Assembly: GCA_045642685.1 (NCBI GenBank)
Contig: JAZUJI010000056.1
Coordinates: 1,696-65,695, forward strand
Direction: 5' to 3'
DNA from: Acutalibacteraceae bacterium
Lineage (GTDB): Bacteria > Bacillota > Clostridia > Oscillospirales > Acutalibacteraceae
DNA: 64,000 bases
The position numbers and the translations under genes were made by a program. The notes under the pieces were generated by a model. That model saw only the letters and a program-made list of their open reading frames with translations, searched no databases and was not told where the DNA came from. Position 1 is the first letter of the stretch, and every line of letters begins with the position of its first letter. This document shows positions 18,287 through 59,240 of this stretch, piece after piece.

Positions 18287-21139
18287 TCAGCCGATGAATT
18301 TCAAGGTAAGAATCTTCTTGCCGGTGATTTCAAAATCAACAAAACCGTCTGCGTTGAGGGCAAGATCTTTTTCGTCCTTTTCTTCCAGCGTGACGAGTTT
18401 GACCTGTGACCACGGCTTGCCGGTGTAGGCGGGCAGCTCAAATTCCGCTTTTTGACGCTCGACCGGTGACTGCGGAGCAGCCGGAGCGATACCGCCGTTG
18501 ACACGAATGGCGTTCTTCACCGCACGGTCGGACGGATTGAACAAACGAATGACCCAGCCTTCACCGTCCTCACTTCTCTTGACAGCGGAGATGTTGAGGT
18601 TTTCGTCTTTCAGCTCAATGAACGAATGAGTCATCGGGGTCTTACCGTGTGCAGTCGGTGCAAGCTGAGCGGCGGTAAGGTAGAGGTTAAACTGTTCGCT
18701 TGCCTGCCACAGGTTTGCTTCCTCCCAGTTGCCTTTATGCGGCATAAAGGCATAACGGAAGGTGTTTTTGCCGATGCACTGAGAGCCTTTGTCCCAATCG
18801 CTGTAATCCTGCATATCCGAGGTGACGCAGATGCGAAGCGGATACGAACGGAGAAGGGTAATATACATTGTTCTGCGCTCGTCGTCGCCTGCCTCAAATG
18901 CCTTGATACCGGTGTTGAGCAGGGCGGCACCGATTTTGCCGTCGGTCAGGTCAACAAATGAATTCATCGGCATTTCGGTCATCGGGATCTCATCGTAAAG
19001 CGAATAATCGGGCTTTTCGATGGGGCGTGCGATTACATCAAACTGGCTCTGTGCCCAGGAGTGATCCGCTTTCAGATCAGTCGGGAACGCAACCTGCAGG
19101 TAGTGATCCTCACAGCGGTTGTTCACGGTCGTTTCCACCTCGACCAGGCGGGAGCCCTTGCGCAGCGTGATAACGGAATCAATGTCGATGGGCAGCTGGT
19201 GCTCACTGCGGGAGCGTTCATCCGCACTGCGCTTTTCGGGCAGCATCCAGCGGTAGGAAACCTTGAACGAGGTTTCAAATTCACCGTGGCGAAGCAGGGT
19301 AACAACGGGTCTTTCACTCAAAGTGGTGAAGGTTTCGTCAAATTCGGGGACAACATGGTTCCACGGGTCGCCAATTTCGCCGCTGTCCTTGAAATAACCC
19401 AGTGAAGTGTATTCTCTGCCGTTTTCCTTGTCGAGAACATCGAAGGTACCGTTGTCGTTGACGGTGACACGAAGGTATTCGTTTTCCATCACACGGGTGG
19501 AACGGAGCATGGTGACGGGTGTGGTCTTGCGGACATTGTGCAGCGGTTCGAGCTTAAAGGTGCGGTAACCCATCGCCGGAATATCCTTGACCTCAAGGGC
19601 GATCAAATACTGCTGTGTGTGCAGCACATTCGCCGTATCGTTCGGGTTCTGGATGATCTGACGGTTGTCCTTGTTGGAGGAAATGATCTGATACTTATAG
19701 GTGTTTCCGTCCTCATCGCTGATACGGAACGAATCCGCTTTCCACTCCTGCGGAATTTCCACACGGAGGTTGACGGTTTCGCTGCGCTTGAAGGGAGCCG
19801 GGTTGAACACGACGATCGCCGCATCATCCCGGGAGAAGGAGGACAAATCAATATCGCCGGCAATATCCATGAACGCACGCTCAAACACGCACTTGGAAAG
19901 CTCGGAGGACTGACGGAAACGGGACATGACATCCTCGTAAACAATGTCTCTGCCGCAGGCACCGATGCTGTCATGCCCATGGTTCTGAAGCAGGTAGTTG
20001 TAGGACAGATCCAGGAAGCCCTGCGGATAAGCCGCGCCCTCAAACGAAGCAAACACGGCAAACGGCTCGGCGTAATTGATCAGGCGGCGTTCGGTGTCGA
20101 AGTTGGTCTGCTTGATGTAAGTGCGTGCGGAAAGGATCCAGCCGCACATGGAGCTGACCGAACCCTTGGTGTAGGGGCAGCGCATTTCGCCCTTGAGCAC
20201 GGGGGAATCGGGCTTGAAGCAGTCGATAACGCCCTGCTCCATTTCTTTCAAAGTGGAATGGAACACGCAGGCATTCGGCAAAGCAGCGTCCAGATCCTCG
20301 ATCAGCTGAACCTCACGGGCATCGGGGCAGGAGGAATCGTGACCGTCGCTCCAGAAGCGGTGCGGTGTCGTCCAGTCGTTATCCTGCTCACGGATCGCCT
20401 GCTCGGCACGGTCTTTGATGTTCTCTTTGTGGTACTCATAGAACGGATGGGTATACTGATAATCCAGCTTCCAGTCCCGGTCGATCAGCTTGAACACACC
20501 GTTGTTGTCGTTCCAGACCATGTCACGGTTGTTCTCGTTTTGCTGATTGTAGTAAACGGGGCGCTGAACCACATACCAGACATTGTAACGGGGACGCTTG
20601 CCCAGACGGGAAGCATAAATGCGGGTGCCGTCGGGGCTTTCCCAGTAAAACTCGGATTTCGGCGCAACATATTCGTTGATGCCGCGGTAGAATGAAGCAA
20701 AATGAATGTCAAAGCCGGCATAAATCTGGGGCAGCTGAGAGATCTGACCCCAGCCGAACGGAGAATAACCGGTCTTGCTCACGCCGCCCATTTCACGGGC
20801 GATCTTATGACCGAGGAGGAGGTTGCGGATAAGAGCCTCGCTGCCGACGGTGTATTCATCCGGCAAAGCAAACCAGGGACCGATACCGATGCGGCCCTCG
20901 GAAACATATTTTTTGAACTTTTCTTTCTTTTCGGGATACACTTCCAGATAGTCCTGCACGGGCATCGTCTGAGAATCCAGATGGAAATGACGGTAACTCG
21001 GGAATTTATCCAGAATATCCATGAGCATATCCAGCATATAGCCCAGCATATACTGCGTGCGGCGTGCGGAAAAACGCCATTCACGATCCCAATGGGTGTT
21101 GGATATAAAGTGACATTGAATCTGATCTTTTTCGTCCAT
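18287..21139 (-). CDS. Glycoside hydrolase family 38 alpha-mannosidase (mannosylglycerate-hydrolase-like), cytoplasmic
   Basis: The N-terminal HFISNTHWDREW motif, ~950 aa, and no signal peptide. Confidence 0.85.
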   Translation of the reverse strand: MDEKDQIQCHFISNTHWDREWRFSARRTQYMLGYMLDMLMDILDKFPSYRHFHLDSQTMPVQDYLEVYPEKKEKFKKYVSEGRIGIGPWFALPDEYTVGSEALIRNLLLGHKIAREMGGVSKTGYSPFGWGQISQLPQIYAGFDIHFASFYRGINEYVAPKSEFYWESPDGTRIYASRLGKRPRYNVWYVVQRPVYYNQQNENNRDMVWNDNNGVFKLIDRDWKLDYQYTHPFYEYHKENIKDRAEQAIREQDNDWTTPHRFWSDGHDSSCPDAREVQLIEDLDAALPNACVFHSTLKEMEQGVIDCFKPDSPVLKGEMRCPYTKGSVSSMCGWILSARTYIKQTNFDTERRLINYAEPFAVFASFEGAAYPQGFLDLSYNYLLQNHGHDSIGACGRDIVYEDVMSRFRQSSELSKCVFERAFMDIAGDIDLSSFSRDDAAIVVFNPAPFKRSETVNLRVEIPQEWKADSFRISDEDGNTYKYQIISSNKDNRQIIQNPNDTANVLHTQQYLIALEVKDIPAMGYRTFKLEPLHNVRKTTPVTMLRSTRVMENEYLRVTVNDNGTFDVLDKENGREYTSLGYFKDSGEIGDPWNHVVPEFDETFTTLSERPVVTLLRHGEFETSFKVSYRWMLPEKRSADERSRSEHQLPIDIDSVITLRKGSRLVEVETTVNNRCEDHYLQVAFPTDLKADHSWAQSQFDVIARPIEKPDYSLYDEIPMTEMPMNSFVDLTDGKIGAALLNTGIKAFEAGDDERRTMYITLLRSYPLRICVTSDMQDYSDWDKGSQCIGKNTFRYAFMPHKGNWEEANLWQASEQFNLYLTAAQLAPTAHGKTPMTHSFIELKDENLNISAVKRSEDGEGWVIRLFNPSDRAVKNAIRVNGGIAPAAPQSPVERQKAEFELPAYTGKPWSQVKLVTLEEKDEKDLALNADGFVDFEITGKKILTLKFIG

Positions 21140-46878: not shown

Positions 46879-49275
46879 TTGACCTTGATAACCAAAGCAA
46901 AGGATGCCGCCGAAAAGGCAAGACTTTATTGGCGCACACCGCCGCTGGGTAACTTTATGACCTACAAGGAAGTTGCTTCCCTGGCAGGCGGCGGTATCGG
47001 CGTGAAATTTATTCTGACTTTCGTTCAGGGCGTGCTGGTCTGCGTTGGCAATGCTTTTTTGGGCAACACCATCGGCATTAAACCGGACCCGATGTACGCC
47101 ATTTATTTAATCAGCGTTTTGGCGAGCTTTCCGCTTACGGCGCTGCGTGCGAATATCGTCGATAACACACGCAACCGCAAGGGAAAGTACCGACCCTATA
47201 TCATTTCCATGGGCTTGCCGACGGTTCTGCTTTCGCTCGGCTATGTGTGGGCACCCTATGAGCGAATGAGCGACATGGGAAAATATGTTACGGTTTTGCT
47301 GTTCAATATCGGGTTTCAGTTTTTCTACAACTTTCTGTTGGACGCATACGACAATTATGTGGTGGTGCTTTCCTCCAACACGCAGGAGCGAGCCAATGTG
47401 GCGGCGGTGCGTGCCGTAACGGATTCGCTTGCGCCGTCGATCACCAACATCGTGGTTCCCATTGCCGGGCGCATGATTACCGGCGGCGAAAATCTGTTTG
47501 ATATTCGCATTTACCGTATCGTATGGCCGCCGATTTTAATTCTCGGTTTTTTCATCAGTCTGATCATCTATGTCAACACGAAAGAAAAAATCATTCAGGC
47601 TCGTACCCATGTGGTGCAGATCAAGTTTACCGATGCGTTCCGTGCCGTTTTCAAAAACAAATATTTCTGGATCATTTCGCTGGCAGGCTGGGTCGGCTTT
47701 TTAGAGGGCATGGCGGCGAATAATATTCTGCCGTGGCTCTATTCTTATCAGCACGCCTGTTCCGATAAGGCGTATGCTCTGATTTGGACGATTTACGGCA
47801 ACGCTTCCCTTTGGGGGATGCTGCTGGCACCGTTCCTCATCAAAAAAATCGGCAAGAAAAATACCCTCATTTTTTCCAATATCATGAACATCTTTTTTAT
47901 CGCCGCCATGTACCCGATCGCCAGAACGGTGGATCCGAGTGTGATGATTTGGCCGATCATGGCCTGTCTGTGGATCAATTCGCTTGTCGGCGCATTTGCG
48001 CACATTCTCAATCCCAGTATCAACGGCGATATCCGGGATTATCAGCAGTATGTCACCGGGGAGCGTATTGACGGAATGTTTGCGGCAGTCGGTTTGATCG
48101 GCAGTGCGGTCACGATGTTTACCACGGGCATACAGTCGTTTATTTACACCCGGGTCGGCTTTAATGACGCAAAGCTGAAGGAGGTTTTGCCTGCCATTAT
48201 TGCGAGCGGACAGAAGATTGACGATGTGAACAATGTCTATAATGTTTTATATGACCGTAACACATTCCTTTCCATTTTCGGCGTACTGATTTTGTTTTCC
48301 GTGATCGGTGCAGCGATGAATGTGGTGCCGTATTTCTTCTATGATTTGTCGGAGACCAAACAGCAGGGCATGGTGCGTGTGCTTCAGATCCGTGCGTTGT
48401 TTGAGGATTACGGTAAGGGTGTCCTCAGCGACAGCAATTTGGTGAAGGCGATTGATCTGGTCAATGAATCACGGAAAAAAACGGAACAGACCCCGATCCC
48501 GACAGAACCTCTGCGGCTGAACCGCAGCCTTTTGAATAAACAGCAGCGCAAACAACGGCGGGAGGCTGTGGAGTACAACCGGGCGATCGAAGTGGCACGG
48601 TTTGTCATGGAGGAAATGAACCGTTTCGATACCCCGCAGGGTATGGCACAGCTGGAAGAGGCCAAACAGGTGGTGAATGCCGGTTTTGACCACATTTTCA
48701 CTGTCAGCAAGGCAGATTTAGCCGCCGCCAGAGTACTTCCTACCGCAACGGTGCAGGAAAAAGAATTCCGCAAGGCGGAAATCCAGCGCATACGGGACTG
48801 CCTTTATGCGCAGAAAATCGCACGCCGCCACTTCCCCAACGGCATTGAAAAATTTGATGAAACGAAGTTTGACAAGCTGTTCCGGCAGGAAGATGAAAAC
48901 GATGAACAGCTTGACAACACCTATAAAGCATACTACGAGGCAAAGGATGCCGGTGACCGGGCGGCGGTGCTTGATTTGATGGAAAAACTCAAGGAGCTGA
49001 AAGCGAAGCGTAAGAGCATTGACCGAGCCATCAAGGAAGCGACGGATAAAAACTCGGTTTACCACCGTGCCGCCAAACCGTTTCTGGATGCTGAAAAATT
49101 GCTTACGCAGGCAGAAAACTACAAGCGGTATGATTTGATTGCCGCTCAGTACGGGGATGCTCTGCGGAGAAAGCAGGCGGCAGAACTTGCCGCCGCCGAA
49201 CAGGCGCAGCAGGAAAAAGCGGCTGAAAAGGCGCACGCCGAACAGCTCCGCAGTCAGCGAAAAAAGAAAAAATAA
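46879..49275 (+). CDS. GPH/MFS-type transporter (about 12 TM) fused to a ~310-aa charged helical C-terminal domain
   Basis: Hydrophobic core to about residue 485, then a K/E/R/Q-rich helical tail ending QRKKKK. The start is uncertain: TTG at 46879 or ATG at 46957. Confidence 0.72.
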   Translation: MTLITKAKDAAEKARLYWRTPPLGNFMTYKEVASLAGGGIGVKFILTFVQGVLVCVGNAFLGNTIGIKPDPMYAIYLISVLASFPLTALRANIVDNTRNRKGKYRPYIISMGLPTVLLSLGYVWAPYERMSDMGKYVTVLLFNIGFQFFYNFLLDAYDNYVVVLSSNTQERANVAAVRAVTDSLAPSITNIVVPIAGRMITGGENLFDIRIYRIVWPPILILGFFISLIIYVNTKEKIIQARTHVVQIKFTDAFRAVFKNKYFWIISLAGWVGFLEGMAANNILPWLYSYQHACSDKAYALIWTIYGNASLWGMLLAPFLIKKIGKKNTLIFSNIMNIFFIAAMYPIARTVDPSVMIWPIMACLWINSLVGAFAHILNPSINGDIRDYQQYVTGERIDGMFAAVGLIGSAVTMFTTGIQSFIYTRVGFNDAKLKEVLPAIIASGQKIDDVNNVYNVLYDRNTFLSIFGVLILFSVIGAAMNVVPYFFYDLSETKQQGMVRVLQIRALFEDYGKGVLSDSNLVKAIDLVNESRKKTEQTPIPTEPLRLNRSLLNKQQRKQRREAVEYNRAIEVARFVMEEMNRFDTPQGMAQLEEAKQVVNAGFDHIFTVSKADLAAARVLPTATVQEKEFRKAEIQRIRDCLYAQKIARRHFPNGIEKFDETKFDKLFRQEDENDEQLDNTYKAYYEAKDAGDRAAVLDLMEKLKELKAKRKSIDRAIKEATDKNSVYHRAAKPFLDAEKLLTQAENYKRYDLIAAQYGDALRRKQAAELAAAEQAQQEKAAEKAHAEQLRSQRKKKK

Positions 49276-49353: not shown

Positions 49354-49387
49354 ATGAATAGATAAACATATGAAGGAGTGTTCATAT

Positions 49388-49747
49388 ATGATAGACGAAA
49401 AGCGAAACGGGGATGAATTTCTCTGCGCTCACAACGAAACGGTGGAAAAGGTGATAAAAGAAATGCCGGAGGAAGAAACGCTGTACGATTTGGCAGAATT
49501 GTTTAAGGTGTTCGGCGATTCGACCCGTATCAAAATTCTGTATGCGCTGTTTGAAACGCAGCTGTGCGTGTGCGATATCGCAAAGCTTCTGAATGTGTCG
49601 CAAACGGCGGTATCCCACCAGCTTCGCATTTTGCGCACAAACAAGCTGGTGATAGGGCGAAAAGAAGGCAAAAATGTGTTGTATTCGCTGGCAGATGACC
49701 ATGTGCGCACGATGATCGGCATGGGTCTGGAGCATATTGAGGAGTGA
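49388..49747 (+). CDS. ArsR/SmtB-family metal-responsive repressor
   Basis: LFKVFGDSTRIKILYAL, CVCDIAKLLNVSQTAVSHQLRIL. The start was moved to the ATG at 49388 (SD AAGGAG at 49372). Confidence 0.88.
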   Translation: MIDEKRNGDEFLCAHNETVEKVIKEMPEEETLYDLAELFKVFGDSTRIKILYALFETQLCVCDIAKLLNVSQTAVSHQLRILRTNKLVIGRKEGKNVLYSLADDHVRTMIGMGLEHIEE

Positions 49748-49751
49748 AAGC

Positions 49752-51635
49752 ATGAGCGATAAGGAAAAACACCACGGGCACGAACACGCCGAAAACCCGA
49801 AGAAGAATATTCTTAAAATTCTTATTGCGGCTGGATTGGCAGTCGGTGCTTTTGGGCTGTGCCGATTTGTTCCTTTATCTGCCGGCGGTGAGCTGCTGCT
49901 GTGGCTGATCCCCTACGGATTGATTTCCTGCGAAACATGGTTTGAGGCACTTCATAACCTGCTTCACGGCGAAGTGTTTGATGAAGCTTTTCTGATGAGC
50001 GTTGCCTCAGCCGGTGCCTTGATTCTGGGCGATTACCCGGAGGCGGTGCTGGTGATGCTCCTGTTTCAAATCGGTGAGTTGTTTGAGAGCTATGCCGTCG
50101 GCAAAAGCCGCCGTTCCATTGAGCAGATGATGGCGATTCGCCCCGATGTTGCCCGGGTCGTGCGCGGCGAAGCAGCTGTGGCAGTGAATCCGGAAGAAGT
50201 AAAAACCGGCGAGGTGATCGAAATTCGCCCCGGGGAACGAATCCCCTTGGACGGTGTGGTGCTTTCGGGTAGCTCAACGGTGGATACCTCTGCCTTAACC
50301 GGCGAATCATGCCCGGCTGCGGCGGCAGCGGGTGATGAGGTGCTCAGCGGCTGTGTGAACCAAAGCGGACTATTGCGGGTGCAGGTCACAAAACCGTTTC
50401 GTCAGTCAACGGTCAACAAGGTTCTGGAGCTGGTACAATACGCCGAAAGCCAAAAGGCAAAAAGAGAAACTTTCATTCACCGTTTTTCCAAAATCTATAC
50501 ACCGTGCGTGGTCGGCTTTGCGCTGCTGCTGGCGGTCGTACCGGGTATTTTCACGAAGGATTTTGCCGCATGGTTTTCACGGGCTTGTGTGTTTCTGGTC
50601 ATTTCCTGCCCCTGCGCTCTGGTGATTTCTGTGCCGCTGGCTTACTTTTGCGGCATCGGTGCGGCTTCCCGGCACGGCATCCTGATAAAGGGAAGCTGTG
50701 CGCTGGATGCACTTGCCAAAACCGGAACGGTCGTTCTGGACAAAACGGGGACTCTGACAAAAGGCGTGTTCCGTGTAACAGCAGTCCACGCCGACAGAAT
50801 GGATGAACAACGGCTGTTGTCGCTGGCGGCGGCACTTGAGCAAGGCTCCAATCACCCGGTTGCACGCAGCATTGTGCAGGCGTGTGAAGCGGCACCTGAA
50901 CCGGTGAGCGAGGTCGAAGAACTTGCCGGTCGTGGTGTGCGAGGCGTTGTGGGCGGTCGGACGGTGTATGTCGGCAGCGATAAATGGATGGATGAGCTTG
51001 GGCTGCCGTGGTATCCCTGTCACCGGGTCGGAACAACGGTACACATGGCGGCGGATGGTGAATATCTCGGGCATATCGTGGTTTCGGATGAGATGAAAGC
51101 CGAATCGGCACCGGCGATTGAAAAGCTGAGAAAAATCGGTGTCACAAAAACGGTGATGCTCACCGGTGATGCAGCCGAAATCGGGCAGGCAGCTGCAAGG
51201 GAATTGAAGCTTGACGAAGTATTTACGAAGCTGCTCCCCGGGGATAAATTGAAAAAAACGGAGGAGCTGCTCCGGCACAAGCCGAATCGCTCGACCCTTG
51301 CCTTTGTCGGGGACGGCATGAACGATGCAGCGGTTCTGACCCGTGCCGATGTCGGAATCGCTATGGGCGGAATCGGTTCCGATGCAGCGATCGAGGCGGC
51401 AGATGTGGTGCTGATGGATGATAACCCACTGAAAATTCCGCTTGCCATTCAGCTTGCCGGGCGCACGCTTCGTGTGGTGAAAGAAAATATCATATTTTCG
51501 CTGGCTGTAAAACTGCTTGTTATGGTGCTCGGACTGCTCGGTTTGGCACCGATGGGCTTAGCGGTGTTCGCCGATGTCGGCGTAACGATGCTGGTGATCC
51601 TCAACGCAATGCGTCTTTTGAAAACAGAACAATAA
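49752..51635 (+). CDS. P1B-2-type heavy-metal (Zn/Cd/Pb) translocating P-type ATPase, lacking an HMA domain and with a His-rich N-terminus
   Basis: SCPCALVIS (CPC), DKTGTLT, GDGMNDA, a TM7 Lys (SLAVKLLV) and a TM8 DVG motif. N-terminal KHHGHEH. Confidence 0.9.
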   Translation: MSDKEKHHGHEHAENPKKNILKILIAAGLAVGAFGLCRFVPLSAGGELLLWLIPYGLISCETWFEALHNLLHGEVFDEAFLMSVASAGALILGDYPEAVLVMLLFQIGELFESYAVGKSRRSIEQMMAIRPDVARVVRGEAAVAVNPEEVKTGEVIEIRPGERIPLDGVVLSGSSTVDTSALTGESCPAAAAAGDEVLSGCVNQSGLLRVQVTKPFRQSTVNKVLELVQYAESQKAKRETFIHRFSKIYTPCVVGFALLLAVVPGIFTKDFAAWFSRACVFLVISCPCALVISVPLAYFCGIGAASRHGILIKGSCALDALAKTGTVVLDKTGTLTKGVFRVTAVHADRMDEQRLLSLAAALEQGSNHPVARSIVQACEAAPEPVSEVEELAGRGVRGVVGGRTVYVGSDKWMDELGLPWYPCHRVGTTVHMAADGEYLGHIVVSDEMKAESAPAIEKLRKIGVTKTVMLTGDAAEIGQAAARELKLDEVFTKLLPGDKLKKTEELLRHKPNRSTLAFVGDGMNDAAVLTRADVGIAMGGIGSDAAIEAADVVLMDDNPLKIPLAIQLAGRTLRVVKENIIFSLAVKLLVMVLGLLGLAPMGLAVFADVGVTMLVILNAMRLLKTEQ

Positions 51636-51699: not shown

Positions 51700-52845
51700 T
51701 CAGAATTTCAACACATAGATAAATGAGCGAATCAGCGCAGCAAACAGATTAACAACCGAAAAAACGACCTTTTCCAAGGGACTGTCGGCGGTGCGGTAAT
51801 CCTCCGAATCGGTCTGCTGTGTGAACACACCGTTCCGATATGTGTAGAGGGTGGTGTTCACCTGCGAGGGATCGTCCTTGCAGATGGTGACGGTGCGTAT
51901 GCCGTAGGGGGACGGCTTGGCAAACTGGCAGCCGTAGGTCACCCCGAGAGTCATGCCGTCATACACGCCCGTGTAGCCGTCCAGATGAATGTCACCGAAA
52001 AAGGCGGCAACGGTGTTTTTTTGCTTGAGAACAGGGAATTGAGCGGAGGTATTGCCGGGCAGGCACGGGTCTTCGGTGTGACCGCTTGCTACGGCATGAT
52101 TCAGGCGAACCACTTTCCCCGATGTGAGAATGGCGCCGTCATCGAACAGGGAACATTCTTCAAACAGATTGCCCGTTTCGGCGATCGGGTTATGTTCAAA
52201 CGCATAACAGGGTACCCCTTGCGTCGGGTAATTCTTCAGCCATTCGAGCTGCCCGTCCGTAAACCCTCTGGCGTTGTCAAGGGCAAACAAGCCGCAAACC
52301 GGGCGTCCGTCCGCTTCCAGAGAAATATAAGTGTCAATGTGACCGTCTGTGTCATCACTCATGTCCACGGTAAGGCAATGCGGATATTCGGCAAAAATTT
52401 TGAGCCAGTCTTCGTTTTTCAGCTGCGTGCGGTAGTCGTTGTCGCCCATTGCGATCGCATAAGGGATGCCCGAGCGTTCAAACGGCTCAAACACCGTGTC
52501 ACAGATGGCTTTGACATTGGCAAATGTTTTTTCATAATCGCCTTTTACAAGCACGCCCTCGTGAAATGGCTGCGCATCGCTGACCAGGTCACCAAAACGG
52601 GAATCCTCAGCAATATCGCCCGAGAGAATGATTAGATCCGGCTTTGCGGTTTGGATGGCTTTGCTCAAAAACTCATTCAGCCCGTGCGCCGGATAAGCAT
52701 CGTCCTGCGGGTCGGAAATCTGCAGAATGGTGAATGTGTCTTTACTGCCGAAGGAACAGGTCGGAGCCTGAACGGCCAATGCGTTCAAGGTCAAAGCAAA
52801 AAGCAGGAATACAACTGAAATTACGGAATAAATCTTCTTCATCAT
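51700..52845 (-). CDS. Secreted calcineurin-like metallophosphoesterase
   Basis: A signal peptide, then ISDPQDD, SGDIAED, GDNDY and FEHNP motifs. Confidence 0.78.
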   Translation of the reverse strand: MMKKIYSVISVVFLLFALTLNALAVQAPTCSFGSKDTFTILQISDPQDDAYPAHGLNEFLSKAIQTAKPDLIILSGDIAEDSRFGDLVSDAQPFHEGVLVKGDYEKTFANVKAICDTVFEPFERSGIPYAIAMGDNDYRTQLKNEDWLKIFAEYPHCLTVDMSDDTDGHIDTYISLEADGRPVCGLFALDNARGFTDGQLEWLKNYPTQGVPCYAFEHNPIAETGNLFEECSLFDDGAILTSGKVVRLNHAVASGHTEDPCLPGNTSAQFPVLKQKNTVAAFFGDIHLDGYTGVYDGMTLGVTYGCQFAKPSPYGIRTVTICKDDPSQVNTTLYTYRNGVFTQQTDSEDYRTADSPLEKVVFSVVNLFAALIRSFIYVLKF

Positions 52846-52858
52846 TATTCTCCGATTG

Positions 52859-52891
52859 AAAAAGCACCGCAGACTGAGAAGCCTGCGGCGC
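52859..52891 (-). terminator. Intrinsic terminator ending the transketolase/aminotransferase operon
   Basis: On the minus strand: GCGCCGCAG-N10-CTGCGGTGC followed by TTTTT. Confidence 0.7.
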
Positions 52892-52907
52892 AGAATAAGT
52901 GTGTGGA

Positions 52908-53723
52908 TCAGCCCTGTGCGTAAGCACCGACCTGAAGCATAAAGTTGCCGAACTGAGCACCGAATTCGGGGCCGCCGTCCATTATGATTCTGCCGTTCTT
53001 GGTTGCGTCAAGCATATCGTCCGTTCCGAGAAGGGTGCCGAGGGCGCTCTTGAAGGAATCGAAGCGAAGTGTGAAGAAAGGCATAGCTCTCTTGTATTCG
53101 CCTCTGCCGGCTCTTGATTTGCCTGCTTTAATGCGGATGAAGGCAGATACCTCAGGGTGATCATTCACCGCCAGTGCATAAACACGGTCGGGGCTGGGCG
53201 CAGTCCAAGCGTTGATTTCGGGGTGACCGTGCTTGTTCAGCGCACTGATGCCGCTTGTCAGCAAATAGAAGAAGCACTTGACCATAAGAGCCTGCGTTTC
53301 TTCATCTTCGGGAGCCTCTTTTGCGGTGAGCAGGCTGCTCATTTTAAGAAGCACCGACATAAACGCGATGAATGTGCTCATATTTTTTGCAATACCCTTC
53401 ATTTTGGGAAGCGTCTTGGGGCCGATGCTGCCCTTGAAAAACGCATTCATCTGCTCAACGGTCTTAAATTCAAGCTCGATATTGGTATGCTCTGCATCGC
53501 ATACACGATCGGCATGAACAAGCCATTCGCCCGAATTGATAACAAAGTGTGTTGCATATTTGCCATCGGGTGCATCGGGATCCAATGCGCTTATCTGAAT
53601 GACCGCATGGGTTTTTTCAAACTTTTTGGCAAGCGAGGGAACATCATTGGCAATCGTCTTCATGAGCGGAAGAGCACCGCAGAGGAATACTTTATTGGTA
53701 AAAATATCTTCTCTTGAAGCCAT
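52908..53723 (-). CDS. Hypothetical protein, suspected tandem SCP2-like (sterol-carrier-protein-2 fold). Paralog of 56953-57711.
   Basis: 271 aa. The C-terminal segment FTLRFDSFKSALGTLLGTDDMLDATKNGRIIMDGGPEFGAQFGNFM resembles the SCP2 C-terminal pattern, and the N-terminal half has a similar pattern. The fold assignment is by eye only. Confidence 0.5.
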   Translation of the reverse strand: MASREDIFTNKVFLCGALPLMKTIANDVPSLAKKFEKTHAVIQISALDPDAPDGKYATHFVINSGEWLVHADRVCDAEHTNIELEFKTVEQMNAFFKGSIGPKTLPKMKGIAKNMSTFIAFMSVLLKMSSLLTAKEAPEDEETQALMVKCFFYLLTSGISALNKHGHPEINAWTAPSPDRVYALAVNDHPEVSAFIRIKAGKSRAGRGEYKRAMPFFTLRFDSFKSALGTLLGTDDMLDATKNGRIIMDGGPEFGAQFGNFMLQVGAYAQG

Positions 53724-53753
53724 ATCTATCTGTCCTTTCTGTTGCTCTTCTTA

Positions 53754-54761
53754 TCAATACTCGTCGTCCCAGTTGTCGTCTTCTTCAAAGTCCTTCTTCA
53801 TAACTTCACGGACGGATGCAATGATGCCGTTTGCATCAATGCCGGCATCTGCCATGATGTCTTCCTGAAGACCGATCATAGCAAAGCCCTTGTGACCGAG
53901 CATCTTGAATGCACAGGCCTTACCGCTTTCAACAACAACTTCGGATACCGCTGAGCCGAGACCGCCTGTTACGAGGTGATCCTCAACGGTGATGATTCTT
54001 CTGGTTTCCATGACCGCCTTGAGAATAGCATCCTTGTCAATGGGCTTGATGGTGTGCATATCGAGCACACGAACACTCAAACCGTCGGCGTTTGCAAGGA
54101 ACTCAGCAGCCTGCTTGGCCTGGAATACGCAGGAGCCGCAGGCGATAACGGTAATATCGGTACCTTCGTTGACGGTAACAGCCTTACCGACTTCAAAGCC
54201 GTAGTCCATATCGGTGTAGAGAACACGGTCAAAACCACGGTTGATGCGGATATAGAAAGGACCTTCCTGAGCGTAAGCTGCGTTGACTGCGTTGGCGGTT
54301 TCGATACCGTCTGCCGGGCAGATAACGGTCAGGTTGGGCATAGCTCTGGTGATGGCAAGGTCGGTGATGGCATGGTGCGTGGAGCCTGCCTGACCGAACG
54401 AGGTGCCGGAATGGGTGGCAACGATTTTAACATTTGCTTTCTGATAGCAGATGTCGGTGTGAAGCTGGTCGCAGGCTCTCATGGAGGTGAAAGCCGAAAA
54501 GCCGGAAACGAACGGAGTGATGCCCGCTTTTGCCATACCGGCGGCAACGCCGAACATATCCTGTTCTGCGATACCGACATTGATGACTCTTTCGGGGCAG
54601 GTTTTCAGAACATCACCGAGCTTTGTTGACTTTGCAAGGTCAGCTGTAATGGCAACAACCTTGGGGTCATTCATCATAATATCCGATATTGCCTTGCCGT
54701 AAATTTCAGCGGTAGCAACCTCGGTCTGATCGATTGCGTTATAAACAAATCCGCCTGCCAT
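53754..54761 (-). CDS. Transketolase, C-terminal (pyrimidine-binding plus C-terminal domain) subunit
   Basis: YGKAISDIM, ITADLAKSTK, VGIAEQDMFGVAAGMA, HDGxTH-like ATHSGTSFGQAGSTHH. Confidence 0.9.
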   Translation of the reverse strand: MAGGFVYNAIDQTEVATAEIYGKAISDIMMNDPKVVAITADLAKSTKLGDVLKTCPERVINVGIAEQDMFGVAAGMAKAGITPFVSGFSAFTSMRACDQLHTDICYQKANVKIVATHSGTSFGQAGSTHHAITDLAITRAMPNLTVICPADGIETANAVNAAYAQEGPFYIRINRGFDRVLYTDMDYGFEVGKAVTVNEGTDITVIACGSCVFQAKQAAEFLANADGLSVRVLDMHTIKPIDKDAILKAVMETRRIITVEDHLVTGGLGSAVSEVVVESGKACAFKMLGHKGFAMIGLQEDIMADAGIDANGIIASVREVMKKDFEEDDNWDDEY

Positions 54762-54763
54762 GA

Positions 54764-55642
54764 TTATTTGCCCTCCTTCTCTGCTCTTGCTTTGCGTTCT
54801 GCATAGGTTGCATCGAGCTCTTTCTTATGCTTTTCAAATGTGTCATCATCGATCGCCATGTAGTGGCAGTGATAGTCGCCTGCAACAGAGGTAAGACCGC
54901 AGCCCTTGACCGTATCCATCAGGATGCAGGTGGGAGCGCAGGGCTCTTTGGAGCGCTCGATTGCAATGTCGATCGCATCGCACAGCTCTTTGATGTTGTT
55001 GCCGTCAACCTTGATGGTGTTGAAGCCGAAAGCGGTAAGCTTATCGGCAAGAGGTTCGAGCTTCATAACTTCTTCGGTCGGACCGTCGATCATGCAATGG
55101 TTTCTGTCAACAAAAACGATGCAGTTTGAAAGCTGATAGTGGTTCATTGTCATGAAGCCTTCCCAGTTGGAGCCTTCACCAAGCTCGCCGTCACCGGTGA
55201 CAACATAGGTAAGGTAGCTTTTGCCGAGAAGTCTGGCAGCAAGGGCAGTACCGGCGGCAATGGAGGGACCGTGACCGAGTGAACCGGTCGAAGCGTCAAC
55301 GCCGACAACCTTGTTGGAGTCAAGGTGCATACCCATCTTTGAGCCGGAAAGGTTAAAGGTTTTGAGCATTTCGGGGTCATTGAAGCCCTTATCGCAAAGT
55401 ACGGGAGCATATGCAATAGCAGCATGACCCTTTGAAAGAATAAATCTGTCTCTGTCTTCCCACTTGGGTTCGTCAACCTTTATATTAAGGTATTTATGAT
55501 ACATAACCGTGAGAAGATCCATGACGGACATACCGCCGCCGAGGTGACCGCTGCCTGCCCACACGGTGGTCTGAAGGCAAAGGTGGCGCAGCTCATTCGC
55601 TTTCTTTTCAAGGGCAAGCCATTCATCCTTTTTCAAAGGCAT
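54764..55642 (-). CDS. Transketolase, N-terminal (thiamine-diphosphate-binding) subunit
   Basis: AGSGHLGGGMSVMDLLTVMY, DRDRFILSKGHAA, GSLGHGPS, GDGELGEGSNWE. A 2-nt gap to the C-terminal subunit gene. Confidence 0.9.
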   Translation of the reverse strand: MPLKKDEWLALEKKANELRHLCLQTTVWAGSGHLGGGMSVMDLLTVMYHKYLNIKVDEPKWEDRDRFILSKGHAAIAYAPVLCDKGFNDPEMLKTFNLSGSKMGMHLDSNKVVGVDASTGSLGHGPSIAAGTALAARLLGKSYLTYVVTGDGELGEGSNWEGFMTMNHYQLSNCIVFVDRNHCMIDGPTEEVMKLEPLADKLTAFGFNTIKVDGNNIKELCDAIDIAIERSKEPCAPTCILMDTVKGCGLTSVAGDYHCHYMAIDDDTFEKHKKELDATYAERKARAEKEGK

Positions 55643-55674
55643 ATCATTTTCCTCCTGTTGTGTTTATTTGTTAT

Positions 55675-56937
55675 TCAGAAAAGCTCGGGGTGATTTTTGG
55701 CAACTGCTTTGAAAGCCTCGTCTGCCACTTCAACCGTCAGGTCAATGTCCTTGTCGGTGATGGCGGCGTTCATGAAGTGGTTGTGGTGGCTTGCAAAGAA
55801 TACGCCTCTCTTGACACATTCGGCGATCCATTCCTGATGAAGCATCATGCTGTCATCGTTGGCGATTCTGAGGTAGAACAAAGCAGGTTCACCGGAAACG
55901 ACCAGGTTGAAGCCGTTATTAGCGGCGGCATCCTTCAAGCCGTTGGTGAGCTTAAGACCCTTTTCACGGAACAGGGTCGGGGTGTCGAGCTTCTTCATCT
56001 TGTTGATGCAGGCGATACCTGCGGCAAACGGGACACAGCTCATCCAGTAGCTGCCGGTGTAGGACAGAGAGCTGACAGCACTCTTGAGGGATTCTTTACC
56101 GCACAGGCAGGAAACATTCCAGCCGTTGGCGATTGCTTTGCAGAAGCAGATGAGGTCTGCCTCAAAGCCGTAGAAATGGTCGGAACCTGCCAGGTCAAGG
56201 CGGAAGCCGGCACGAACATCATCCACGATCAGGACAATGCCTTTACGGGTGCAAAGCTCACGAACCTTCTGCCAGTAGCCGTCTGCCGGAAGCTCGTTGT
56301 CCTTATAGTTGCCGTGCATATAGGGCGTTGCGATGAAAGCGGCAACCTCGTTGTCGTTTTCGGCAACCAGCTTTTCGAGTGCCTCAAAGTCGTTCCAGTC
56401 AACATAAAGGTTGTTGGCAACATCCTCGGGAACAACGCCGGGGTAGTCGACCTTCTGGGTCCAGGGAGAAATGCCGTGATAGAAGCCGTTGACGAAGATG
56501 ATCTTTTTGCGGTGGGTGGCTGCACGGGCGGTCATGATGGCGCAGGTGGTCACATCGTTGCCGTTCTTAGCGAAGAAAGCCCAGTCAGCGGTTGCAACGG
56601 TGTCAACCATCAGCTCAGCAAATTCGACCATGATTTTGTTCGGGGAGGTGGTGCAGTTGCCGAGTTTGGACTGCGCAATGGCAGCGGCATCAACATCCTT
56701 GTCGCAGTAACCCAGAACATTGGGGCCGTAGGCGCACATATAGTCGATGTACTTGTTGTCGTCCACATCCCAGAAATAAGCACCCTTGGCGTGGTCGCCG
56801 AACAGCGGCCAGTCGGATACGGGGATGAAGTTGCCTTCGGCAGGGCCGAGGTGACCGTAAACACCGGAGGGGATCACTTTGGTTGCACGGTTAAAATATT
56901 CACGGCTTTTGTCGTGTTCATAAATCGGAAAACTCAT
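55675..56937 (-). CDS. Class-III (HemL / glutamate-1-semialdehyde-aminomutase-like) PLP-dependent aminotransferase
   Basis: DVDDNKYIDYMCAYGPNVLGY, LIVDDVRAGFR, and ADLICFCKAIANG (Lys at the position of the HemL GKxIGGG PLP lysine). Confidence 0.82.
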   Translation of the reverse strand: MSFPIYEHDKSREYFNRATKVIPSGVYGHLGPAEGNFIPVSDWPLFGDHAKGAYFWDVDDNKYIDYMCAYGPNVLGYCDKDVDAAAIAQSKLGNCTTSPNKIMVEFAELMVDTVATADWAFFAKNGNDVTTCAIMTARAATHRKKIIFVNGFYHGISPWTQKVDYPGVVPEDVANNLYVDWNDFEALEKLVAENDNEVAAFIATPYMHGNYKDNELPADGYWQKVRELCTRKGIVLIVDDVRAGFRLDLAGSDHFYGFEADLICFCKAIANGWNVSCLCGKESLKSAVSSLSYTGSYWMSCVPFAAGIACINKMKKLDTPTLFREKGLKLTNGLKDAAANNGFNLVVSGEPALFYLRIANDDSMMLHQEWIAECVKRGVFFASHHNHFMNAAITDKDIDLTVEVADEAFKAVAKNHPELF

Positions 56938-56952
56938 CTTGCAGTACCTCCG

Positions 56953-57711
56953 TTATGCCAGATACAGAGCTACTCGGTCGAGTATTCTGTTCAGGTTGTC
57001 TATCATGTTGATCATGCCGCGCATCTCAATGGAGCCTTCACCGATGCAGGCAACGGCGTTGACTTTGCCGTCAAACAAATCACGGGCAAGGTCAATGCTT
57101 TCAAATCTCATCAAAGCTCTGGGGTTCTCACAGGCCTTTTTGATGGTGACAAGTTTGTGATCCTTGACACGGATGGTGGCGGCAGGACCGTCCTTGATGC
57201 CGAAGGCGATTTCACCGTCGGGAATCAGGTGAGCGGAGAACTTGCCGATTTCATCGTTGTTGGCGATCTGAGCCAAAGCGACGGAGATGGTGTAGAACAT
57301 CAGCTTTGTGCTGATCTCAAAGAATTCACGGTCTTCAAGGTCTTTGGGGTCGGGGCGCATGAAAGCGGTCAGACGATCGGTCAGAGCGGTGAAGGTCTTG
57401 AGCAGGAAACCGATGTGGGTAAGGCCCTTGGTGGGGATGGGGGTAACGGTTCCGTCAAACAAGCCGTTGAATTTTTCGCAGGAAGCGAAGGGGATTTTGA
57501 TGGTGCAGTCACCCAGACCCTGTTCAAGACGGCATTTGCCGTTCTTGAAGTAAAGAGTGGCTTTCGGACCGCCGGCCACATCGAAGCCGATGGAGATCGG
57601 TTTCTGGTTTGAAAGCATTGCGCTTGAAGCGGTATCAAGCTCGCAAAGGTTTTCAAGAGTGCCGAAAATAGCATACATATTGATGTATGCCATTGTTCTT
57701 GAATCTGTCAA
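56953..57711 (-). CDS. Hypothetical protein, suspected tandem SCP2-like. Paralog of 52908-53723.
   Basis: Aligns by eye along its whole length with the 52908 protein (for example ALMRFESIDLARDLFDGKVNAVACIGEGSIEMRG versus FTLRFDSFKSALGTLLGTDDMLDATKNGRIIMDG). The start was set to TTG at 57711, 8 nt after AAGGAGG; the ORF-track ATG at 57756 has no SD. Confidence 0.5.
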   Translation of the reverse strand: MTDSRTMAYINMYAIFGTLENLCELDTASSAMLSNQKPISIGFDVAGGPKATLYFKNGKCRLEQGLGDCTIKIPFASCEKFNGLFDGTVTPIPTKGLTHIGFLLKTFTALTDRLTAFMRPDPKDLEDREFFEISTKLMFYTISVALAQIANNDEIGKFSAHLIPDGEIAFGIKDGPAATIRVKDHKLVTIKKACENPRALMRFESIDLARDLFDGKVNAVACIGEGSIEMRGMINMIDNLNRILDRVALYLA

Positions 57712-57779
57712 AGCACATTCCTCCTTGCAAGACGCATGATAATTTTGTGCTTGCACACTGCGTCTAATATATCATTCTG

Positions 57780-57809
57780 ATTTTACCAAATAATTGCATG
57801 GCTTGTCAA
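57780..57809 (-). promoter_or_regulatory. Sigma-A-type promoter (TTGACA-18 nt-TAAAAT) for the five-gene operon
   Basis: The reverse complement of 57804-57809 is TTGACA and of 57780-57785 is TAAAAT. It is followed by a leader hairpin at 57730-57765. Confidence 0.55.
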
Positions 57810-57845: not shown

Positions 57846-59240
57846 TCACACGGCTTCCTCTGCTTTTTCTCCGTCCGGCTTCATCGTCACATCCCGGATC
57901 CAGCGGAACCGGTTCACCTTTACGGCGGCAACGGCGCATTTTGTCACCTGGTCGGATTTGAGGCAGGCGAAGGTCACGGCAGGCGGCCACTTGAAAACAA
58001 AGGCGGAAAGCAGCGAAAGCGGCAGGACAATGCCCCACATGAAAATTAAATCGTTGCGGAACACGAAGCCGGTATCACCGCCGGCGCACACGATGCCGGT
58101 CAGGCACGGACATTCATAGGCGGTGCCCACGGTGGTGACGCACAAAATGGTCATGAACAAATTCGCCAGTGCCTTGGTCGGTGCGCTGACCTCCTTGTAG
58201 AACAGCAAAAACAGCGGTCGGGAGAAAAACAAAACCGCACCCGAAGCAAGCCCGATCAAAAGGAACAGCACCTGAAGGGTTTTCGCATACTGCTTGACCA
58301 AATCAAGCTTGTTCTCCCCGATGGTTTTGCCGATAATGACCGAAGCTGCATTTCCGGCAGCATAAAGCACAACGCTGATGAGTTGGAAGACGGTGGCGGC
58401 AATGGAGTTGGCACTCAGCACCGATTCCGAGCCTAAGTGGCCGAGGATAACACCCTGTATCGCCATGGCGATACCCCAGCTCAGCGAAGAAAGCGTCAGC
58501 GGAAAACCGACCTTAAAGAACAGGCGGATATAGGATTTTTCAACATAGAAAAAGTGGCGGAGCTTCAGCCGCAGCGTTTTTTCAACGCCGAATACATAAA
58601 CAAGCACCACGGCAAACTCGATCAGCCGGGAGGTGAGCGTTGCGATAGCGGCACCACGGATCCCCATGGGCGAAAAGCCGAGATGGCCGTAAATCAGGAC
58701 ATAGTTGAGAAATACATTGGAAAGGAGTGCCGACAGGGAAACAAAAAAGCCGATACGCACTTTTTCGATGCTTCGCATTAAGGCGAGCAGAAGCTGCGTC
58801 ACAAGAAAGAACGGGTAGGAAAAGCAGGTGATCAGCAGGTAGGGGATCCCTTCGTTGACAACGGCGGTCTGGTCGGTCAGAAGGGAAAGGGCTGCCCGGG
58901 GAAAGAACAGCACCGCACCGAACAGAACCAGCACAAACGCCATGCCGATGGCAAGCGTCACACCGAAACAGCGGCGAATGGGCGTCAGCTCTTTTTTGCC
59001 CCAGTATTGAGCGGTCAGAACGATCAGACCGTTGGAAAAGCCGATGGCGATCATCTGCACCAGAAACTGGATCTGATTGACGACCGAAACAGCACTGAGC
59101 GACAGCTCACTGTAGCTGCCGATCATGACATTATCTGCCAGATTAACAGCGCAGACGATGACATTCTGCAAAGAGATTGTCATCGCCATTGAAAAAAACA
59201 TTTTATAAAATTGTTTATCTTTCACAAGGAATTTTTTCAT
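57846..59240 (-). CDS. MATE-family efflux transporter
   Basis: ~460 aa, 12 TM, with a typical N-terminal FYKMFFSMAMTISLQNVI pattern. Confidence 0.85.
   Translation of the reverse strand: MKKFLVKDKQFYKMFFSMAMTISLQNVIVCAVNLADNVMIGSYSELSLSAVSVVNQIQFLVQMIAIGFSNGLIVLTAQYWGKKELTPIRRCFGVTLAIGMAFVLVLFGAVLFFPRAALSLLTDQTAVVNEGIPYLLITCFSYPFFLVTQLLLALMRSIEKVRIGFFVSLSALLSNVFLNYVLIYGHLGFSPMGIRGAAIATLTSRLIEFAVVLVYVFGVEKTLRLKLRHFFYVEKSYIRLFFKVGFPLTLSSLSWGIAMAIQGVILGHLGSESVLSANSIAATVFQLISVVLYAAGNAASVIIGKTIGENKLDLVKQYAKTLQVLFLLIGLASGAVLFFSRPLFLLFYKEVSAPTKALANLFMTILCVTTVGTAYECPCLTGIVCAGGDTGFVFRNDLIFMWGIVLPLSLLSAFVFKWPPAVTFACLKSDQVTKCAVAAVKVNRFRWIRDVTMKPDGEKAEEAV

Follow-up and report, generated by a model that had tools for sequence, protein, structure and literature searches.

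A conserved five-gene operon of Clostridia combines a FumI-like aminotransferase and an atypical split transketolase with paired SCP2-fold proteins and may act on lipid amino alcohols

We analyzed a 64,000-nucleotide stretch of DNA from an Acutalibacteraceae bacterium (GenBank assembly GCA_045642685.1, contig JAZUJI010000056.1, positions 1,696 to 65,695; hereafter the window) and focused on a five-gene unit on its minus strand. The unit spans positions 52908-57711. In order of transcription, it encodes a protein that we call B, an aminotransferase (AT), the N- and C-terminal subunits of a transketolase (TKN and TKC), and a second protein, A (Table 1). The intergenic distances, computed from the coordinates of the open reading frames (ORFs), are 15, 32, 2 and 30 nt. 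The same order and gaps had been given in an earlier interpretation of this DNA made from the letters alone (the sequence-only reading), which also assigned the unit its own promoter and terminator. Each of these signals is the strongest of its kind between positions 50000 and 60000. The promoter matches the consensus at 11 of 12 positions, carries a TG extension and ranks first among 11 promoter-like sites. The terminator hairpin (52891-52864) contains 12 pairs, eight of them G-C, followed by TTTTT.

Table 1. Features of the five-gene unit in the window.
Feature	Position	Strand	Description and basis
Sigma-70-type promoter	57780..57809	-	TTGACA, 18-nt spacer, TAAAAT, TG extension
Ribosome-binding site	57720..57726	-	AAGGAGG, 8 nt 5' of the gene B TTG start
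Gene B	56953..57711	-	252 aa; two predicted tandem SCP2-like domains (ORF, AlphaFold, Foldseek)
Aminotransferase (AT)	55675..56937	-	420 aa; class-III pyridoxal phosphate (PLP) aminotransferase, FumI-like by homology (Pfam Aminotran_3, best PDB relative 6hbs)
Transketolase N-terminal subunit (TKN)	54764..55642	-	292 aa; predicted to bind thiamine diphosphate (ThDP) (PF00456, PDB 6yak)
Transketolase C-terminal subunit (TKC)	53754..54761	-	335 aa; pyrimidine-binding and C-terminal domains (PF02779, PF02780)
Gene A	52908..53723	-	271 aa; two predicted tandem SCP2-like domains, paralog of B (ORF, AlphaFold, Foldseek)
Intrinsic terminator	52859..52891	-	12-bp stem (8 G-C), 4-nt loop, T run

The ORF containing gene B was listed as 56953-57756. 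Its true start is most likely the TTG codon at 57711, because a ribosome-binding site lies 8 nt upstream and nearly all homologs are 252 residues long and start there. The length of B is corrected accordingly to 252 residues, from about 267. Pfam domains recognized in the unit are Aminotran_3, Transketolase_N, Transket_pyr and Transketolase_C, and the core enzymes fall into the families expected by the sequence-only reading (Aminotran_3, PF00456 and PF02779). That reading had found no sugar kinase, isomerase, binding protein or permease inside the unit, and we likewise found none among the five genes. An Rfam scan of the whole window did not detect a riboswitch or any other RNA family.

A and B had been described as aligning with each other from end to end and as each resembling two SCP2-type half-domains. 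Both descriptions stand. BLASTP detected 26% identity between A and B over 177 residues (E 2e-7), and a joint alignment of 41 members of the two families extends end to end with 18 invariant columns. A and B are true paralogs. AlphaFold modeled each protein as two successive alpha/beta modules (pLDDT 91.7 for A and 93.7 for B; pTM 0.89). Foldseek comparison of the models to the PDB returned almost exclusively SCP2-fold entries, at probability 1.0 and with TM-scores to the target of about 0.55-0.69. A matched SdsA1 (its C-terminal SCP2-like region), TT1886, SCP2 and UbiJ; B matched the C-terminal region of SdsA1, UbiJ-SCP2 and SCP2. Animal and yeast SCP2 are among these entries. The models thus predict, with high confidence, an SCP2 alpha/beta fold in A and B with two domains per protein. 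In the SCP2 profile comparison suggested earlier, only a sub-threshold match appeared: the Pfam model PF02036 scores B at 19.8 bits (gathering cut-off 21.3) and does not match A. A precomputed PF02036 match is present in some homologs, and no family in Pfam or NCBIfam covers A or B.

An exhaustive profile search collected 550 clusters at 50% identity, which form A-like and B-like branches. Among members that are 27-65% identical, the positions conserved at 90% or more are occupied, with few exceptions, by Gly, Pro, Phe or some other non-polar amino acid; polar residues reach this level only at Q43 of A and at N82, D153 and Y250 of B. We considered whether A and B could be enzymes and do not favor it, since looking for conserved catalytic residues yielded almost only non-polar positions; this pattern better suits binders or scaffolds. 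The closest structural matches of both proteins are lipid- or alkyl-binding domains (the alkylsulfatase SdsA1, UbiJ and SCP2). The same fold occurs in UbiJ/UbiT, in the C-terminal domain of SdsA1 and in eukaryotic SCP2/SCPx, and the role that A and B may share with these helpers is the presentation of a hydrophobic substrate to soluble enzymes. Unlike them, A and B are stand-alone proteins of two SCP2 domains that occur as a paralogous pair, with neither a Pfam model nor a fused enzyme domain.

The sequence-only reading labeled AT as HemL-like, and this label had to be abandoned. AT matches HemL models at E 1e-59 to 1e-67, but its scores are far below the curated cut-offs (199.3 bits against 527.3 for TIGR00713, and 225 against 398 for NF000818). 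The best PDB match of AT is FumI (6hbs; E 1.3e-88, 301 bits, 38.5% identity over 400 residues, residues 12-416). FumI scores about twice as high as the best HemL in the PDB (about 156 bits), and the next class-III family after FumI reaches 156 bits among PDB sequences. PigE and GntE are among the weaker family matches. On these grounds we rejected HemL as the identity of AT. The full-length homology to FumI, well beyond that to other class-III families, identifies AT by sequence as a FumI-like class-III aminotransferase.

FumI belongs to the fumonisin degradation cluster of Sphingopyxis sp. MTA144, has the class-III PLP fold and is the closest solved relative of AT. It deaminates hydrolyzed fumonisin B1, a long-chain 2-amino-3-ol, to a 2-ketone, using pyruvate as the acceptor with a Km of 1.1 uM (PMC3136697). 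We liken this sphinganine-like substrate to the putative substrate of AT. The two systems differ in that the FumI substrate is a 1-deoxy base that gives a methyl ketone, which is not a transketolase donor. FumI also comes from aerobic Proteobacteria, and neither an SCP2 partner nor a transketolase is present in the two contexts examined. These contexts are plasmids of Novosphingobium capsulatum (L173) and Shinella sp. HZN7 (L174), which carry FumI-like aminotransferases 50-62% identical to FumI. The Novosphingobium gene is surrounded by genes for class II aldolases, a carbohydrate kinase, a TetR regulator, an aldehyde dehydrogenase, a P450, a GDSL esterase and a TonB receptor. The Shinella gene neighbors acetoin-dehydrogenase-like ThDP E1/E2 genes and a class IV aminotransferase gene. 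By analogy, both may be uncharacterized catabolic clusters that follow the same logic, in which a vicinal amino alcohol would be deaminated and the resulting hydroxyketone cleaved.

The transketolase is divided between two polypeptides with clear Pfam matches (PF00456, E 9e-41; PF02779, E 8e-41; PF02780, E 1e-27). The best PDB hits are 6yak for TKN (split transketolase of Carboxydothermus hydrogenoformans, E 4e-59) and 6yaj for TKC. The C. hydrogenoformans enzyme has the same two-subunit architecture and is the closest relative of known structure for both subunits. Four active-site histidines of TKN align with those of human transketolase. The ThDP-activating Glu (E411 in E. coli, E366 in human) and the histidines H26, H66, H100, H261 and H473 (E. 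coli) align as conserved, with no variation at the E366, H416 and H473 equivalents among 66 orthologs. As judged from these alignments, TKN and TKC contain the domains and catalytic residues of a split-type transketolase.

The substrate pocket of this enzyme is altered. We took a census of TKC residues in 66 orthologs and seven further operon-linked distant sequences, aligned to 6yaj and human transketolase. The correspondence between human and E. coli numbering is one that we assumed and then checked against the motifs H-x7-D-x3-H and A-T/S-R-K-A. The canonical Arg (human R318, E. coli R358) is replaced by Ala in 65 of the 66 orthologs and by Ala or Gly in distant operons. The canonical Asp (human D424, E. 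coli D469) is Ala in every ortholog and in all seven further sequences. Within the subfamily, Gln replaces the canonical Glu (human E423, E. coli E468) and Phe replaces the canonical Ile/Leu (human I421, E. coli L466). Ser (human S345, E. coli S385), His (human H416, E. coli H461) and Arg (human R474, E. coli R520) are kept, as are the equivalents of E. coli E411 and H473. In TKC of the window, Ala18 occupies the R358 position, and Ala125 occupies the D469 position within the motif H117-SGTSFGQ-A125-GST-H129. The C. hydrogenoformans and human enzymes retain both the Arg and the Asp. Operon-linked TKC proteins that are only 60-65% identical also show the motif SFGQAG(S/T)THH, combined with Ala or Gly in place of the Arg, which marks it as a signature of the subfamily.

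The E. coli enzyme binds the phosphate of its substrate through R358, S385, H461 and R520, and its D469 forms a hydrogen bond to a sugar hydroxyl, discriminates between stereoisomers and is a main engineering site (PMC11387542). To admit non-polar aldehydes, the key position to substitute is D469; D469T opens space for them in the pocket (PMC5073344). TKC has an incomplete phosphate-binding set, with the R358 equivalent lost, and its subfamily does not have the stereospecificity Asp. Because of these two losses, TKN/TKC appears suited to a substrate with a tail that bears no phosphate and has no hydroxyl beside the reacting carbon. A sugar phosphate may still be the second substrate, since one phosphate-binding Arg, the His and the Ser are retained. 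TKN/TKC thus shares the catalytic Glu, the active-site histidines and three phosphate-site residues with canonical transketolases (E. coli, yeast, human), but throughout the operon-linked subfamily TKC has Ala, Ala, Phe and Gln in place of R358, D469, L466 and E468.

We examined how widely the unit is distributed. A pattern scan of one genome per GTDB species recovered at least 593 relatives of B. The best 80 of these were all metagenome-assembled genomes (MAGs) assigned to Clostridia, Acutalibacteraceae or Oscillospiraceae, from rumen, colon and feces. The order B-AT-TKN-TKC-A was found in every close locus with enough sequence. A search with a distant B-like representative, followed by retrieval of genomic contexts, revealed the same order in Oceanirhabdus sp. 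W0125-5, Vallitalea longa, a Spirochaetaceae MAG and two other contigs. Scanning metagenomes with a profile built from distant members added about 60 loci with the five-gene core, from fermenters, sediments and the human gut. The conservation across Clostridia suggested by the sequence-only reading is therefore very broad and reaches distant Clostridia and a spirochete. The five-gene module is real, very widespread and uncharacterized; its gene order, folds, homologies, active-site substitutions and conservation come directly from the data. Full-text literature searches found no published description of the combination, in keeping with the earlier remark that it did not match a described pathway. 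In three loci (L091, L156 and L163) the unit is rearranged so that B-AT faces A-TKC-TKN, and L091 and L156 have a second split transketolase pair beside it. The second pair of L091 (15138-16897, plus strand) adjoins the operon-type pair and has Cys for S345, Asp for H416 and Asn for D424 (human numbering); from these residues, it possibly represents another non-canonical transketolase subfamily.

These data bear on the simplest account of the locus, a pentose-phosphate transketolase and HemL flanked by two unrelated hypothetical proteins. In many Clostridia, the pentose-phosphate pathway normally relies on a split transketolase, and the E-values of AT against HemL models would suit such an account. 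Yet AT scores far under every HemL cut-off and much closer to FumI, and the transketolase subfamily is without two canonical substrate-binding residues. The five genes also travel together across phyla, and L091 has another split pair next to the operon-type pair. We consider the housekeeping account largely refuted and give it almost no credence.

We propose that the operon encodes a cytoplasmic route for degrading or detoxifying hydrophobic vicinal amino alcohols, most likely sphingoid-type long-chain 2-amino-1,3-diols such as sphinganine and sphingosine. We hold this reading tentatively, as one that could well prove wrong. A and B would extract the lipid from the membrane and hand it over to the soluble enzymes. 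AT would then move the C2 amino group to a 2-oxo acid, yielding a 1,3-dihydroxy-2-ketone and removing the cationic antibacterial amine. The ketone would contain CH2OH-CO-CHOH-R, the donor motif of transketolases. TKN/TKC could cleave it between C2 and C3, release a fatty aldehyde (R-CHO) and pass the two-carbon ketol unit to an acceptor aldose. We favor a sphingoid substrate for this sequence because, among amines, only a 2-amino-1,3-diol yields on deamination a compound with that donor motif. The substrate, the direction in which the route runs and the role of A and B as carriers are our inferences, and the evidence converges on a hydrophobic vicinal amino alcohol or ketol. The best reading of the operon is a new route for lipid amino alcohol metabolism built from known enzyme chemistries. 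The lipid-linked 2-amino-1,3-diol that the sequence-only reading had suggested, handled by transketolase and transaminase, gains from the FumI-like AT, the SCP2 folds, the pocket losses and the accessory genes described below.

The unit had been regarded as self-contained, and this is true only of the lineage of the window. Outside the Acutalibacteraceae, the core is often extended after A on the same strand. The additions include a TetR regulator (about 19 loci), a glyoxalase-fold (VOC) protein (about 15 loci) and a 750-residue Fe-S flavoenzyme (about 8 loci). The flavoenzyme has its best family matches to BaiCD, bilirubin reductase and FadH/OYE, and its best PDB matches are 2-naphthoyl-CoA reductase and 2,4-dienoyl-CoA reductase. 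Two cultured carriers, Oceanirhabdus sp. W0125-5 and Vallitalea longa, both have the TetR gene. A tungsten-type aldehyde:ferredoxin oxidoreductase (AOR) gene stands right after the TetR gene at four loci in two clades. AOR, ene-reductase and TetR genes suit hydrophobic carbonyl compounds, for which they are typical. In these lineages, the ene-reductase could reduce the 2-enal expected from a 4-ene base, AOR could oxidize the fatty aldehyde, and TetR may sense the lipid and render the unit inducible. We also found B and AT as a pair without any transketolase at two loci (L088 and L089). At L089 the pair is located among genes for a PlsC-type acyltransferase, an HpnA/OleD-like reductase and an OlsE-like lipid hydroxylase. 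B and AT on their own might already be enough to remove the cationic amine, with B as a putative lipid carrier or scaffold and partner of the aminotransferase.

The likely direction of flux is suggested by the accessory genes and the precedent of FumI, both of which point to degradation or detoxification. In the opposite, biosynthetic direction, which the sequence-only reading had raised, the transketolase would add a ketol to a fatty aldehyde and AT would aminate the product to a sphingoid-like 2-amino-1,3-diol, independently of serine palmitoyltransferase (SPT), with A and B holding the intermediates. Both reactions are reversible in principle. The unit occurs in about 590 or more species genomes of one family and is very conserved, as expected for a core lipid function, and the promoter in the window looks constitutive and has no regulator. 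The association with AOR is compatible with synthesis because AOR can work in the reducing direction; aldehyde:ferredoxin oxidoreductases can also turn acids into aldehydes. To our knowledge, sphingolipids are not known from the taxa that carry the unit, which speaks against synthesis. Phytosphingosine production has been reported for the clostridial species Flavonifractor plautii, with the genes not identified (PMC11914097), and this would fit a synthetic role. However, no gene resembling an N-acyltransferase or ceramide synthase accompanies the transketolase-containing units in the contexts examined. The TetR, ene-reductase and glyoxalase-fold accessories look catabolic, and FumI, the nearest characterized aminotransferase, works in the deaminating direction. 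Nothing we found favors the SPT-independent synthesis proposed earlier, and we regard this direction as unlikely. In its more general form, a lipid-specialized transketolase, a FumI-like AT and SCP2 carriers of anaerobic Firmicutes and spirochetes would interconvert fatty aldehydes and sphingoid bases, with the synthetic direction as an SPT-independent route; this, too, strikes us as improbable.

Genes near the operon in some relatives point to a different kind of substrate. In a clade about 70% identical to the window, mtnN (S-adenosylhomocysteine/methylthioadenosine nucleosidase) is directly upstream of the unit on the same strand at 25 loci. It lies 120-650 nt upstream in most of them (L038-L084; for example, upstream of position 8001 in L042). 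luxS is found near the unit in this clade and in another (L011-L024), in divergent, co-directional or downstream arrangements, and this variety hints at selection for proximity. The operon might then act on a water-soluble amino-polyol, amino-sugar alcohol or non-phosphorylated ribose analog released by MtnN (5-deoxyribose or methylthioribose). A PfkB kinase gene downstream of the operon in 4 of 84 loci, class II aldolase genes near it in a human-gut clade, the loss of the R358 equivalent and the occurrence of FumI-like aminotransferases in sugar-type clusters would all agree with such a substrate. However, ribose-type acceptors carry a 2-hydroxyl that is normally bound by the very Asp that was lost, and four SCP2 domains would have no role for a soluble sugar. 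Neither mtnN nor luxS accompanies the operon of the window or the distant operons. The recurrent BaiCD/FadH-like reductase, AOR and TetR suit hydrophobic carbonyl compounds. We retain salvage of 5-deoxyribose, methylthioribose or 4,5-dihydroxy-2,3-pentanedione (DPD) only as a minor alternative, since both the SCP2 proteins and the missing Asp would go unexplained. We rate a soluble substrate as distinctly doubtful.

The proximity of luxS and mtnN in some clades could instead hint at signaling. The product of the operon might be an alpha-hydroxyketone, an amino alcohol or another small hydrophobic molecule that serves as a signal or natural product, in the manner of the AniP/AniQ and PigD/PigE pairs. 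In the biosynthesis of anisomycin (AniP/AniQ) and prodigiosin (PigD/PigE), a natural pair of a ThDP-dependent C-C enzyme and an aminotransferase acts on a non-phosphorylated hydrophobic substrate (PMC11387542). PigE and GntE are among the weaker matches of AT, and a MATE exporter gene adjoins the operon of the window and is also found close to the operon of L085. In contrast to the operon, these pairs are biosynthetic, belong to secondary-metabolite clusters and are without SCP2 proteins. AniP uses arylpyruvate donors and does not have the transketolase histidine motif (PMC11387542), whereas the histidine-rich motif is kept here. Tailoring, non-ribosomal peptide synthetase and polyketide synthase genes are not present, and typical biosynthetic clusters are much less widespread and less uniform than this unit. 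We think a signal or natural product very improbable.

Several observations weigh against the degradation of sphingoid-type amino alcohols. In the window, the operon comes without a regulator, a transporter or any gene for handling the aldehyde, and its neighbors are unrelated. The sphingoid model leaves mtnN or luxS beside the operon in relatives unexplained. FumI-like aminotransferases are also found in sugar-like contexts, and the SCP2 fold of A and B points to hydrophobic ligands only by analogy. The unit is near-universal in one family, and its proteins are 66-80% identical on average over 84 loci; such conservation looks more like that of a core function than of an accessory catabolic trait. 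Finally, natural D-erythro sphingoid bases would give a 3R ketol, and canonical transketolase donors are 3S. By our own reasoning, this mismatch would call for an altered stereopreference or an epimerase, for example the glyoxalase-fold protein, which is absent from the window.

We compared the proposed degradative route to known systems. The sphingosine-1-phosphate (S1P) lyase pathway uses a kinase and a PLP-dependent lyase and releases phosphoethanolamine. The outcome that we propose is the same, namely C2-C3 cleavage to a fatty aldehyde (a 2-enal from 4-ene bases) that is then reduced or oxidized. The mechanism would differ, as the unit is proposed to combine transamination with ThDP-dependent ketol transfer, and it contains no homolog of the kinase or lyase. 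Split-transketolase sugar operons, such as those for apiose (AptAB) and sulfoquinovose (sulfo-TK), have an adjacent isomerase, kinase, transporter or binding protein gene. The unit in the window and the distant operons have no such sugar genes, and PfkB is confined to the few loci mentioned above. Canonical bacterial sphingolipid synthesis uses Spt, CerR and bCerS, and we found neither an SPT-type C-acyltransferase nor a ceramide synthase among the five genes or their neighbors. In engineered cascades of transketolase and omega-transaminase, an aldehyde and a ketol donor give a 1,3-dihydroxy-2-ketone and then a 2-amino-1,3-diol. This is the two-step chemistry that we propose for the unit, run in the synthetic direction. 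Such cascades are laboratory constructs acting on short aldehydes, whereas the substitutions in the unit are natural and family-wide, and its enzymes are coupled to SCP2 proteins. The sugar operons, the S1P lyase pathway, SPT-based synthesis and AniP/AniQ each share one aspect with the operon, and none shares the gene set.

Sphingoid bases are abundant in the gut, where they come from the diet, the host epithelium and Bacteroidota, and they are bioactive and antibacterial. The only route for their breakdown that we know of is the kinase/S1P lyase pathway. If our proposal is correct, hundreds of Clostridia species would possess a second, mechanistically different route for removing or making sphingoid bases, with a bearing on how gut bacteria shape host sphingolipid pools. 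We know of no other natural lipid-adapted transketolase. TKN/TKC would be the first, and would use the positions (D469 and R358) that engineers mutate for non-polar aldehydes. A role would also be assigned to a large tandem-SCP2 family of about 550 clusters at 50% identity. The operon could supply enzymes for detoxifying fumonisin or other sphinganine analogs under anaerobic, rumen-like conditions. If the synthetic direction were correct, sphingoid-like lipids or signals would be expected in abundant gut Clostridia that have no known sphingolipid pathway.

Other genes recur around the operon in particular clades. In a human-gut clade (L123-L170, about 30 loci), conserved neighbors lie about 2-9 kb downstream of gene A on the opposite strand. 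They encode a membrane protein, two class II aldolase-like proteins and a second class-III aminotransferase of 511 residues. Upstream in this clade are a phosphopantetheinyl transferase gene and a metallo-beta-lactamase-fold gene, with a BD-FAE/Abhydrolase_3 esterase gene in about 20 loci. In a clade 81-83% identical to the window (L008-L024), a gene for a 339-residue NAD-dependent epimerase resembling short-chain dehydrogenases/reductases (SDRs), with a weak HpnA match, follows gene A on the same strand after 59-153 nt; the window has no such gene. We considered this SDR-like gene as a counterpart of the lipid-type SDR at L089 and discarded this idea, as the similarity is only that of a generic Rossmann fold.

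A 381-residue calcineurin-like metallophosphoesterase with an N-terminal hydrophobic signal-like segment is encoded downstream of the operon in the window (51700-52845, minus strand) and starts 19 nt past the terminator. We considered a resemblance of this protein to acid sphingomyelinase and dropped the idea, since it has no PDB sequence relative at E 0.01. In L001 and L002, metallophosphoesterase genes and a gene for a PTS_EIIC_2 membrane protein also lie at a distance of a few kb from the operon, and in L091 a PTS_EIIC_2 gene is directly 5' of B. The MATE efflux gene of the window (57846-59240, minus strand) is immediately upstream of the operon promoter. In L085 (Oceanirhabdus), a MATE efflux gene (18332-19687) is just after the TetR gene. 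This adjacency may be a coincidence or may reflect export of a pathway product. Farther along the window, an ArsR-family regulator gene overlaps the start of a gene for a 632-residue P-type (E1-E2) ATPase (49370-51635, plus strand), which looks like an ordinary metal-efflux pair. Beyond it is a gene for a 798-residue MFS_2 transporter (46879-49275, plus strand) whose long, highly charged C-terminal extension (about 350 residues, rich in Lys, Glu and Ala) is unusual for the family.

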